Of a DNA stretch of 30,754 nt, positions 24,527-27,405 are shown one piece after another. Under the pieces are notes generated by a model that searched no databases, was not told where the DNA came from, and saw only the letters and a program-made list of their open reading frames with translations. The stretch spans positions 1 through 30,754 of the forward strand of contig CAMDMH010000001.1 of assembly GCA_945901835.1 (NCBI GenBank), in the 5' to 3' direction. The DNA is from Devosia equisanguinis. GTDB lineage: Bacteria; Pseudomonadota; Alphaproteobacteria; Rhizobiales; Hyphomicrobiaceae. Each line of letters starts with the position of its first letter. Position 1 is the stretch's first letter. The position numbers were made by a program, and so were the translations under genes.

Positions 24527-25084
24527 TTGACGCGTTCGACCCTTGCCGCGGCGTCCTTCGCCGCCATGATGCTGGCCACGCCTGTCGCCTTCGCCCAGAA
24601 GGCCGATCCGGCCAATACGCTCGTGATCGAGCTGAAGTCGGGGCCGGTGCAGATCCAGCTCATGCCAGACCTTGCGCCCAAGCACGTGGCGCGCGTGAAG
24701 CAGCTCGCCAATGAGGGCTTCTACAACGGCATCAAGTTCCATCGCGTGATCGACGGCTTCATGGCGCAGTCCGGCGATCCGACCGGCACCGGCAGCGGTG
24801 GCTCGAAGTACGGCAGCATTCCCGCAGAGTTCTCGAAGTACGTCTACAAGCGCGGCACGGTGGGTGCGGCGCGGACCAGCGATCCCAACAGCGCGAACAG
24901 CCAGTTCTACATCTGCTTCAACGATACGGGCTGCCAGGGCCTGACCGGCCAGTATACCGTGTGGGGCCAGGTGATCTCCGGCATGGAGAACGTCGACAAG
25001 ATCAAGCGCGGCGCGCCGGGCTCGGGCGCGGTGACGGACCCGGACGTGATGCAGAAGGTGTATCTACTGTCGAACAAGAAGTGA
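24527..25084 (+). CDS. Cyclophilin-type peptidylprolyl isomerase, exported
   Basis: TTG start after AGGAG; signal peptide ending AFA; FYNGIKFHRVIDGFMAQSGDP, ARTSDPNSANSQFYI, YTVWGQV. Confidence 0.92.
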   Translation: MTRSTLAAASFAAMMLATPVAFAQKADPANTLVIELKSGPVQIQLMPDLAPKHVARVKQLANEGFYNGIKFHRVIDGFMAQSGDPTGTGSGGSKYGSIPAEFSKYVYKRGTVGAARTSDPNSANSQFYICFNDTGCQGLTGQYTVWGQVISGMENVDKIKRGAPGSGAVTDPDVMQKVYLLSNKK

Positions 25085-25223: not shown

Positions 25224-25697
25224 ATGGCCTACAAAGATCCAGAGAATACGATCGTGATGGAGACGACCAAGGGTAACGTCGTGATCCAGTTGCGGCCCGA
25301 TCTCGCGCCGAAGCATGCCGAGCGCATCAAGATGCTCGCGCGCGAAGGCTTCTATGACGGCATCGTGTTCCATCGCGTGATCGACGGCTTCATGGCGCAG
25401 GTCGGCTGCCCGCACGGCACCGGCACCGGCGGTTCGAAGCACCCGAACCTTCAGGCCGAGTTCAACGCCGAGCCGCATGTGCGCGGCGTGTGCTCGATGG
25501 CGCGGTCGTCCAGCCCGAACAGCGCCAACAGCCAGTTCTTCATCTGCTTCGACGACGCCAGCTTCCTCAACAAGCAGTACACTGTGTGGGGCCAGGTGAT
25601 CGAAGGCATGGACAACGTCGACAAGATCAAGAAGGGCGAGCCGGTGCAGAACCCGGACAAGATCGTGTCGATGAAGGTTGCCGCGGATATCAAGTAA
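25224..25697 (+). CDS. Cyclophilin-type peptidylprolyl isomerase, cytoplasmic
   Basis: AAGGAG RBS; FYDGIVFHRVIDGFMAQ, SMARSSSPNSANSQFFICF, YTVWGQV. Confidence 0.95.
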   Translation: MAYKDPENTIVMETTKGNVVIQLRPDLAPKHAERIKMLAREGFYDGIVFHRVIDGFMAQVGCPHGTGTGGSKHPNLQAEFNAEPHVRGVCSMARSSSPNSANSQFFICFDDASFLNKQYTVWGQVIEGMDNVDKIKKGEPVQNPDKIVSMKVAADIK

Positions 25698-25759: not shown

Positions 25760-25788
25760 AAGGGGCGGCGCCGAAAGGCTCGCCCCTT
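25760..25788 (+). terminator. Probable terminator of the cyclophilin pair
   Basis: AAGGGGCG-GC-GCC-GAAA-GGC-T-CGCCCCTT stem with GNRA loop, followed by ACGTATTTT. Confidence 0.55.
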
Positions 25789-25868
25789 ACGTATTTTCCA
25801 CGTGTCGGCTTGACGCATATGGCCGCTCACCGGCATTGTCCCGGCGATTTCCAAAAGAGGCACCCGCA

Positions 25869-27134
25869 ATGCTCGCTCGCGCCCTTTCCCTGGCTGCACT
25901 TCTCGCTAGCACTTCGCTTGCTGGCCCCGCCTTCGCACAGGGCGCCCCGGCGGCGGCCGTTCCGCTGCCGGCCGGTCAAGGCAAGGAACTGGTCGAGGGG
26001 GTGTGCACGGCCTGTCATCAGGTGCGTGAGATCCAGCGCAGCATGGGTTACTCGAAGGAGGGCTGGAAGGAGCTGGCGGCGACGATGATCGACCTGTCGA
26101 AGACGCCGGACCAGCGCGAGGAGATCATCTCCTACCTCGCCACGCATTTCCCCGAGGGGAAGAACCCGCGGCCGGCGAAGCAAGTCGACGGCGACCAGCA
26201 GATCGCCTTCAAGCAGTGGACGATGCCGTCGCTGGGCCAGCGCTCGCGCGATCCCGTGCAGGGGAAGGACGGCAAGATCTGGTACGTCGGCCAGTTCGGC
26301 AACGTGATCGGCTGGATCAATCCCGACACAAACGAGATCCGCGAATATCCATTGCCGTCCGGCTCTTATCCGCACAACGTGACACTGGACAAAGATGGCA
26401 ATGCCTGGTGGACGGGCAACAAGAACGGCACCATCGGCAAGTTCGATCCGAAGACGGAGAAGAACACCGTTTACAAGATGCCCGATCCGAAGGTGAAGGA
26501 CCCGCACACGGCAGAGTTCGACCAGAAGGGCATTCTCTGGTTCTCGGCACAGCACAGCCAGCACGTCGGCCGCCTCGATCCTGCCACCGGTGACATCAAG
26601 GTATGGCCGCTGCAGACGCCCAAAGCGCAGCCCTACAGCGTGAAGATCGACTCGAAGGGCAACGTCTGGGTGTCGTGTAACGGCGCGCCGTGCCTGATCA
26701 AGATCGATCCCGTCACGTTCGAGATCTCGGAGTTCTCGCTGCCGCTCGCCGGCACCACGGTCCGGCGCATCGACATCGGGCCGGATGATCGGGTGTGGTA
26801 CGTCAACTCGGGCCGCGGGCGGCTCGGCGTCTACGATCCCGCGACGGGCCTTGCCAAGGAATGGGACAGCCCGAGCGGGCGCACCTCGCACCCCTACGGC
26901 ATCGCCGTGATCGACGGCATCGTCTGGTACAACGAGTCCAACGTGCGGCCGGACATGCTGGTGCGGTTCGATCCCAAGACCGAGAAATTCCAGAGCTGGC
27001 CGATCCCTTCAGGCGGCATTCATGCGGGCATCGTCCGGCACATGCGCCCGACCAAGGAAGGCAACCTGCTGATCCATCAGAGCAGCACCAACCGCATCAC
27101 GCTGGTCACGCCGCGGCCGCCGCTCACAAGGTAG
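25869..27134 (+). CDS. Exported fusion: N-terminal monoheme cytochrome c plus Vgb (streptogramin lyase)-like beta-propeller
   Basis: AAGAGG RBS; signal ending AFA; LPAGQGKELVEGVCTACH heme motif; repeated blades (PH/PY...D..G..W...IG.FDP.T....Y..P). Confidence 0.88.
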   Translation: MLARALSLAALLASTSLAGPAFAQGAPAAAVPLPAGQGKELVEGVCTACHQVREIQRSMGYSKEGWKELAATMIDLSKTPDQREEIISYLATHFPEGKNPRPAKQVDGDQQIAFKQWTMPSLGQRSRDPVQGKDGKIWYVGQFGNVIGWINPDTNEIREYPLPSGSYPHNVTLDKDGNAWWTGNKNGTIGKFDPKTEKNTVYKMPDPKVKDPHTAEFDQKGILWFSAQHSQHVGRLDPATGDIKVWPLQTPKAQPYSVKIDSKGNVWVSCNGAPCLIKIDPVTFEISEFSLPLAGTTVRRIDIGPDDRVWYVNSGRGRLGVYDPATGLAKEWDSPSGRTSHPYGIAVIDGIVWYNESNVRPDMLVRFDPKTEKFQSWPIPSGGIHAGIVRHMRPTKEGNLLIHQSSTNRITLVTPRPPLTR

Positions 27135-27174: not shown

Positions 27175-27405
27175 TTGCGGCTCTTCACACGCGCATTGTT
27201 TGCATTCGTTGCCACTTCCCTGATGATCGCCGCACACATGACCAGTGCCTACGCGCAGAGCGCGTCGGCCGTCCACGTCGTCAGGTACCTCGATATCGCG
27301 CCGGAAAGCGTGGCGAAGGCGAAACCGCTGCTGCGGCTCCATCGCGACGCGGCCTTGGCGCAATTCGTCCTGCCAATGCCTCACGTTGCCGCCACAATGC
27401 GCTGA
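27175..27405 (+). pseudogene. Truncated exported protein, likely 5' remnant of an ABM (antibiotic biosynthesis monooxygenase)-fold gene
   Basis: GGAG plus TTG start; signal peptide ending AYA; VHVVRYLDIAPESVAKAKPLLRLHRDA resembles the first strand and helix of ABM domains; the frame then ends in unrelated sequence. Confidence 0.5.

Follow-up and report, generated by a model that had tools for sequence, protein, structure and literature searches.

An exported protein with a haem-c domain and a Vgb-type propeller

We analyzed a 30,754-nucleotide stretch of DNA from Devosia equisanguinis (contig CAMDMH010000001.1, hereafter the window, from a genome that is 70% complete), which contains a gene whose 421-residue product joins a cytochrome c domain to a beta-propeller resembling that of the streptogramin B lyase Vgb. 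The features of this gene are listed in Table 1. The ATG at 25869 was preferred as the start codon over an upstream TTG at 25836 because of the position of the Shine-Dalgarno-like AAGAGG. The N-terminus is hydrophobic and variable across all aligned homologues, and it has low confidence by the predicted local distance difference test (pLDDT) in the structural model described below. The original prediction, which had been made from the letters of the window, named a signal peptide, a CTACH haem motif, the methionine of a downstream ATMI as a possible distal ligand, and a propeller rich in PH and PY blade-tip residues. All of these were located in the product: CTACH at residues 46-50, the methionine at position 73, YPHN at 167-170, DPHT at 211-214, QPYS at 254-257, HPYG at 341-344 and VRHM at 389-392. 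These motifs did not arise by chance. In an alignment of 203 distinct homologues that carry the same fusion (fused homologues) and 27 relatives of the propeller without the haem domain (unfused relatives), C46, C49, H50 and M73 were invariant in the fused group and the blade-tip residues were kept in 195 to 200 of its 203 members.

Table 1 Features of the cytochrome-propeller gene and of related loci. Positions are those of the window unless a locus name is given.
Feature	Position	Strand	Remarks
Cytochrome-propeller gene	25869-27134	+	Intact open reading frame without internal stop; product of 421 residues
Shine-Dalgarno-like AAGAGG	25855..25860	+	8 nucleotides ahead of the ATG at 25869; read from the sequence
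Sec-type signal peptide, residues 1-23	25869..25937	+	Predicted cleavage between AFA and QG; no twin-arginine motif
Mono-haem cytochrome c domain, residues ~33-94	25965..26150	+	Four helices; closest to SorB
CTACH haem-c attachment motif (C46, C49, H50)	26004..26018	+	In 203/203 distinct fused homologues
Met73, candidate sixth haem ligand	26085..26087	+	In 203/203 fused homologues; on helix 63-73
Ordered linker, residues ~95-110	26151..26198	+	pLDDT 93-95, no regular secondary structure; joins haem domain to propeller
Seven-bladed Vgb-fold beta-propeller, residues 111-416	26199..27116	+	Strand 111-118 closes blade 7
YPH169 (blade 2) and D211-P-H213 (blade 3), candidate His/Asp/His metal site	26367..26507	+	Conservation and Vgb-like pattern
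Remaining ring: Y256 (blade 4), R299-R300 (blade 5), H341/Y343 (blade 6), R390-H391 (blade 7)	26634..27041	+	Conservation
C270-x4-C275 pair, top-face loop of blade 4, beside ring residue N271	26676..26693	+	Kept in 191/203 fused homologues
Choice-of-anchor V genes	L102:2463-2975; L111:101-718; L114:3351-3911	L111 and L114: -	Divergent from or downstream of unfused propellers

The structure of the product was modeled with AlphaFold2 from a 42-sequence alignment, which gave a mean pLDDT of 92 and a predicted template modeling score of 0.88. In the propeller region, 28 strands are arranged into seven four-stranded blades. Its relationship to Vgb was apparent in both sequence and structure searches. 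The Pfam family PF24684 (Vgb_lyase) matched with an E value of 6e-32 and 111 bits against a cut-off of 50, and a sequence search of the PDB returned three Vgb entries at E ~1e-28. When the model was compared with 48,161 PDB representatives by VIA-align, Vgb (2z2n_A) ranked first with a Z score of 39.4, a root-mean-square deviation of 1.8 Å and 21% identity, with 291 of 293 residues aligned such that model residues 111-416 lie on chain residues 2-294, blade to blade. Foldseek also supported the Vgb fold, with a template modeling score of 0.93. The next VIA-align matches were generic seven-bladed propellers with Z scores of 32 or less, including WD40 and integrin propellers, and Pfam SGL/SMP-30 lactonase matches were obtained at E 5e-8. 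The likeness to Vgb of Staphylococcus aureus and S. cohnii (2z2n, 2z2o, 2z2p and 2qc5) extends to the fold and to the repeat signature, and in both proteins the functional positions are those that open the innermost strands. The Vgb-like propeller of the original prediction is well founded. A pair of cysteines in blade 4, C270 and C275, is replaced by Leu/Glu and Lys in the unfused relatives. The pair probably forms a disulfide, which could be structural or redox-active.

The haem domain is modeled as helices at residues 39-48, 52-56, 63-73 and 80-93. When a profile of the N-terminal domain was searched, the best match was SorB (2blf_B, E 0.0026), with the CxxCH motif and a Met-Ile pair aligned, such that Met73 falls on the methionine of the SorB "MI" pair. 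The NCBIfam model for SorB (NF052246) also matched residues 27-93 at E 0.0026, with 17.8 bits against a cut-off of 93, and the Pfam cytochrome c family PF00034 scored 14.7 bits, below its cut-off of 21.3. Since these scores lie below the family cut-offs, we consider the domain a distant, SorB-like relative rather than a member of the SorB family. SorB is the cytochrome subunit of sulfite dehydrogenase and takes electrons from its catalytic partner, and His/Met haem c domains of this type are electron carriers. The domain here resembles SorB of the Starkeya novella sulfite:cytochrome c oxidoreductase SorAB in its size, the placement of CxxCH and the position of the Met-Ile pair; SorB, however, forms a subunit of its own that works with a molybdenum enzyme, whereas this domain is fused to a propeller. 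Exactly one CxxCH was found at each of 81 fused-gene loci. By its conservation and its alignment with SorB, Met73 is the putative sixth ligand of the haem.

The protein is almost certainly not a streptogramin B lyase

Vgb is a cytoplasmic, single-domain enzyme of about 300 residues, haem-free and Mg2+-dependent, whereas the protein here has a signal peptide and a haem-c part of about 90 residues ahead of its propeller. As the superposition runs blade to blade, the catalytic positions of Vgb can be read across from it and from the Vgb sequence: H228 corresponds to Y343, E268 to I388/V389, H270 to R390/H391 and E284 to Q404. The roles of Vgb H228, E268 and E284 in Mg2+ binding and catalysis were reportedly described by Korczynska et al. 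in 2007. H270 is catalytic in Vgb according to the title of PDB 2z2p, and both the Mg2+ and the substrate are bound by polar residues of blades 6 and 7 (PMC8916777). The original prediction had stated that the EPH catalytic motif of Vgb is not evident in the last blade, and this is correct; what it had missed is that a Vgb-like PH/(D/E)PH pair is present in blades 2 and 3.

Automatic annotation would nevertheless make the protein a true streptogramin B lyase, and JGI names its relatives "virginiamycin B lyase", in keeping with the Vgb fold and the PF24684 match. Against this, the protein is exported and carries a haem motif, the NCBIfam models for Vgb(A) and Vgb(B) score only 86.4 and 70.9 bits against cut-offs of 600 bits, and H228, E268, H270 and E284 are all replaced. 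We regard this function as virtually excluded. Because of the replaced catalytic positions, the low model scores, the export and the haem motif, the lyase name is unsafe for the relatives, and it is almost certainly wrong for the haem-fused family. The label is attached to thousands of genes of soil and marine Proteobacteria, Binatia and other phyla, where it inflates the numbers of antibiotic-resistance genes reported by environmental surveys. There is a precedent for a Vgb-fold propeller with a new function in the alkylating enzymes CylK and BrtB, where an N-terminal domain has been added and the Vgb catalytic residues have been replaced (PMC8916777). The added domain of CylK binds Ca2+ and its chemistry is non-redox, while the added domain here is a haem c domain.

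A conserved ring of blade-tip residues contains a candidate metal site

The conservation of the propeller was examined at the position that carries the catalytic residues of Vgb, that is, the residue after the proline that opens each innermost strand, together with the residue before that proline. The ring so defined consists of D128, H169, D211, H213, Y256, R299, R300, Y343 and R390, which are conserved in 195 to 200 of the 203 fused homologues and in 19 to 25 of the 27 unfused relatives. H169 was found in 196 fused homologues and D211 and H213 in 198 each, and all three are kept in 25 of the 27 unfused relatives. The counts for the remaining residues in the fused group were 199 for Y256, 199 for R299, 198 for R300, 195 for Y343 and 196 for R390. 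A further ring, made up of residues that end the second strands (Q142, N184, Q228, N271, N313, E356 and Q404), shows the same degree of conservation among the fused homologues. The first ring is retained in relatives down to about 31% identity but is lost in a few distant fused clusters (P0123, P0140 and P0149).

YPH169 and D211-P-H213 repeat the pattern of RPH228 and E268-P-H270 in Vgb, four blades earlier. Both proteins thus have a PH/(D/E)PH pair in adjacent blades, which are blades 6 and 7 in Vgb and blades 2 and 3 here. Since the His, Tyr and Arg residues of the ring occupy the same blade position as the active-site residues of Vgb in the 1.8 Å superposition, they are likely to converge on a central site. 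The pattern suggests a His/Asp/His metal site in blades 2 and 3, with the Arg and Tyr residues of blades 4 to 7 as a putative substrate pocket.

The propeller could instead be non-catalytic. The haem c would then be the sole redox center of an electron carrier whose propeller docks to a protein, a polymer or a surface. Propellers are common as binding scaffolds, the structural matches that follow Vgb are WD40 and integrin propellers, and the fused genes have neither a conserved partner gene across the 81 loci nor a cofactor motif recognizable by Pfam or NCBIfam. However, the His/Asp/Tyr/Arg ring sits at the catalytic position of Vgb and is kept down to about 31% identity, also in unfused relatives that lack the haem. 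Conservation of this extent, and without the haem, is what active sites, more than docking surfaces, usually show, and we consider a docking protein unlikely.

The same ring is found in unfused, exported propellers (for example P0137 and P0144), which are 42-45% identical to the propeller here and share its D/H/D/H/Y/R/R/Y/R pattern, but which, unlike the protein here, have no fused haem domain.

Evidence for a redox function

We propose that the protein works in the periplasm as a metal-dependent oxidoreductase whose own haem c serves as the electron relay, a reading to which we assign a probability of roughly 0.55. This is close to what the original prediction had inferred, namely a protein other than a streptogramin lyase and probably an oxidoreductase of the periplasm that depends on a metal or cofactor and has an electron relay; the present results support it to the extent that sequence analysis allows, with the redox function as a probable one. 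A redox role is supported because CxxCH and Met73 are invariant, because the haem domain is SorB-like, because a di-haem variant exists and because genes for unfused propellers sometimes adjoin genes for CxxCH proteins. The di-haem variant, P0142, is an independent fusion in which two cytochrome c domains precede the same type of propeller. At five loci (L102, L107, L111, L114 and L125), exported unfused propellers with the same ring adjoin a CxxCH protein that has a signal peptide. These neighbors are exported proteins with a conserved GGFGE-x-TC-x-x-CH motif, and those of L102, L111 and L114 belong to the "choice-of-anchor V" family (NF041895; 87-99 bits against a cut-off of 42), a family other than that of the fused haem domain here. 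We propose the uncharacterized choice-of-anchor V proteins as candidate haem partners of the unfused propellers. Among immediate neighbors, CxxCH proteins were found in 5-6 of 91 cases for unfused genes and in 0 of 174 for fused genes, compared with 12 of 1,173 background genes of the same loci. Such a split between fused and unfused genes would be expected where the fusion has taken the place of a separate partner.

A non-redox hydrolase or lyase, lactonase- or Vgb-like and with another substrate, would leave the haem domain with a structural role or as a redox or gas sensor. All characterized Vgb-fold enzymes are non-redox, the SGL/SMP-30 lactonase matches reach E 5e-8, the PH/DPH pair resembles the Mg2+ site of Vgb, and unfused relatives exist at 42-45% identity. 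On the other hand, SorB-type haem domains carry electrons, the haem site is strictly invariant, a di-haem variant exists and some unfused relatives pair with CxxCH proteins. We therefore consider such an enzyme quite unlikely.

Several observations weigh against a metal-dependent oxidoreductase as well. The known functions of Vgb-fold propellers, those of Vgb and CylK, are non-redox (PMC8916777). A few distant fused clusters (P0123, P0140 and P0149) are without the His pair, and the enrichment of CxxCH neighbors comes from few, possibly related, loci. Across the 81 fused-gene loci, no neighbor is conserved beyond within-clade synteny and none indicates a substrate or a pathway. Full-text literature searches combining Vgb or streptogramin lyase with cytochrome returned no paper on the family or the architecture. 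In the model, moreover, the linker reaches the propeller at the bottom of blade 7, which in a monomer may place the haem far from the top-face pocket.

With the metal-dependent oxidoreductase as the preferred reading, we envisage the following mechanism. The protein would be exported, and the haem would then be attached in the periplasm. A substrate would bind in the central top-face pocket of the propeller, which is lined by the nearly invariant ring. H169, D211 and H213 would probably coordinate a divalent metal, much as Mg2+ in Vgb is bound by the equivalent PH/EPH pair. The substrate, anionic or polar, would be held by R299, R300, R390, Y256 and Y343. A small anion or an organic molecule with carboxyl groups would suit an Arg-rich pocket together with a SorB-like haem domain. 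Electrons would pass to the His/Met haem c and from there to a soluble cytochrome or a terminal oxidase, with the reverse direction equally possible. Given a Sec signal and periplasmic haem attachment, the second center could realistically be a metal ion or a cofactor that is either loaded in the periplasm or derived from the protein itself. Since the gene stands alone, we propose that the enzyme feeds a general periplasmic electron pool rather than a dedicated pathway. In its most specific form, the proposal is that of a new class of periplasmic dehydrogenase or reductase, built on a Vgb-type seven-bladed propeller with an Arg/Tyr pocket and a His169/Asp211/His213 metal center that would be a rotated version of the Vgb Mg2+ site, which acts on a common anionic substrate and is linked directly to the respiratory chain through its own SorB-like haem c. 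We advance this version tentatively, with the odds somewhat against it.

Comparison with other haem-c and propeller enzymes

The original prediction had pointed to cytochrome cd1 nitrite reductase and the quinohaemoproteins as architectural relatives. In cd1 nitrite reductase and in quinohaemoprotein alcohol dehydrogenases, a class I-type cytochrome c is joined to a periplasmic catalytic propeller, as it is here. Those propellers, however, are eight-bladed and hold haem d1 or pyrroloquinoline quinone (PQQ), whereas the propeller here has seven Vgb-type blades and no detectable sequence relation to them.

A PQQ-dependent quinohaemoprotein, in which the Arg/His/Tyr pocket binds PQQ and the haem c takes the electrons, would follow a known design of PQQ, haem c and propeller. 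Several of the Arg residues could hold the carboxylates of PQQ, and 3 of 119 immediate neighbors of the family are PQQ-type GSDH genes. We examined nine family-carrying genomes for pqqC (TIGR02111). It was found in three and not in the other six, namely a closed genome of Halomonas litopenaei, that of Oceanibacterium hippocampi, G003 (100% complete), G007, G012 and the genome of the window itself (70% complete). In addition, known PQQ propellers have eight or six blades rather than seven, and PQQ-related models matched only weakly, far below their cut-offs (TIGR03866, 23.7 bits against a cut-off of 287). PQQ dependence is thus not supported, although scavenging of PQQ is possible, and we consider a quinohaemoprotein improbable.

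The order of domains, cytochrome c followed by propeller, and the His/Tyr/Arg pocket also recall cytochrome cd1 nitrite reductase. In a cd1-like enzyme, the pocket would contain a second, non-covalent tetrapyrrole with a His or Tyr ligand and with Arg residues on its propionates. The propeller has seven blades and not eight, though, and no cd1 protein was found among the top Pfam, PDB-sequence, Foldseek and VIA-align matches or the NCBIfam matches. There were likewise no genes for haem d1 biosynthesis or insertion among the neighbors in the window or the 119 immediate neighbors of the family. Taken with these results, a cd1-like enzyme is highly improbable. The lactonase-type N2O reductase (L-NosZ, NF052460) was considered and rejected, as it matched with 20.3 bits over model positions 52-150 only, against a cut-off of 700.

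In the most specific form of the proposal, the family would be a fourth kind of haem-c/propeller redox protein, beside cd1 nitrite reductase, the quinohaemoproteins and cytochrome-fused N2O reductase. If the family is one of redox enzymes, it represents a widespread and uncharted point of electron entry or exit in the periplasm of aerobic heterotrophs, and its compact single polypeptide with a haem relay would be suited to enzymology and to biosensors that work by direct electron transfer. For mutagenesis, concrete targets are provided by the conserved ring and by the candidate His/Asp/His site. This work contributes a definition of the pocket at the level of residues and the recognition of the rotated PH/DPH pair. 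It also assigns the haem domain as SorB-like, tests for pqqC and contrasts the neighbors of fused genes with those of unfused ones.

Family size and distribution

The protein is no isolated candidate but an ordinary member of a very large family. A word-indexed search yielded at least 3,587 homologues, of which the best 120 are all 389-426 residues long and 60-92% identical. An exhaustive search of 50%-identity representatives returned 7,684 proteins at E values of 1e-10 or less, which make up a wider Vgb-like superfamily; many of its clusters are unfused and several are fused. A relative is encoded in at least 554 species genomes, which belong to Alpha-, Beta- and Gammaproteobacteria, Binatia, Entotheonellaceae and others. 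Carriers available in culture include Halomonas litopenaei, Zhongshania borealis, Oceanibacterium hippocampi, Pelagibius and Granulosicoccus. A copy with 66% identity is located on a megaplasmid of Microvirga ossetica. The distribution is patchy: of 41 genomes around that of the window, 4 have full-length copies, and relatives of any kind were found in 12 of 401 genomes sampled across the phylum. A search of the ESM Atlas returned only the family's own clusters. A homologue on the Ralstonia solanacearum megaplasmid (32% identity) was considered as a proxy in a model organism and rejected; it is without the DPH motif and its neighbors are uninformative.

Gene neighborhood

The genes upstream in the window encode two cyclophilins and an outer-membrane barrel protein, and a gene for a DUF2339 membrane protein is located downstream; a CMD-family protein is also among the neighbors. 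The cyclophilin-type peptidyl-prolyl isomerase genes lie in tandem just upstream, at 24539-25084 and 25224-25697, both on the forward strand. The first has an exported-looking N-terminus, and the long open reading frame listed from 24155 probably starts much later. Between the second cyclophilin gene and the cytochrome-propeller gene is a GC-rich inverted repeat, GGGGCGgcgccgaaaggcTCGCCCC, at 25762-25790. It has the appearance of a terminator hairpin that lacks a T-run, consistent with separate transcription of the downstream gene.

The original prediction had looked to the neighborhood for ABM and cytochrome partners, and none was borne out. The proposed ABM partner, an open reading frame at 27175-27405 on the forward strand, encodes 76 residues with a signal-peptide-like start and has no Pfam match. 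The relative L014, which is 96% identical, does not contain the DNA of its 5' half, so the frame probably represents no real gene, or a remnant of one. The 119 immediate neighbors of the family fall into 128 Pfam families, the most common of which, ABC_tran, occurs 6 times, and apart from synteny inside one clade no neighbor family is shared among the 81 fused-gene loci. The cytochrome-propeller gene stands alone.

Other arrangements were observed around Vgb-like propellers outside the fused group. At L104 (G336:C2:40261-43992), tandem genes for exported Vgb-like propellers of 355 and 330 residues are followed by a gene for an exported CxxCH protein of 179 residues, for which no Pfam match was found. 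The window's own genome encodes, at L013 (G000:C117:611-4276), a cytoplasmic Vgb-like paralogue of 296 residues and about 27% identity, downstream of genes that by eye resemble CoxM and CoxS. At L005 (G015:C36), a CoxS-type 2Fe-2S gene (Pfam Fer2_2) and a CoxM-like gene come after the gene for an unfused propeller that is exported. Two different Vgb-like propellers thus adjoin subunits of the molybdenum-hydroxylase type.

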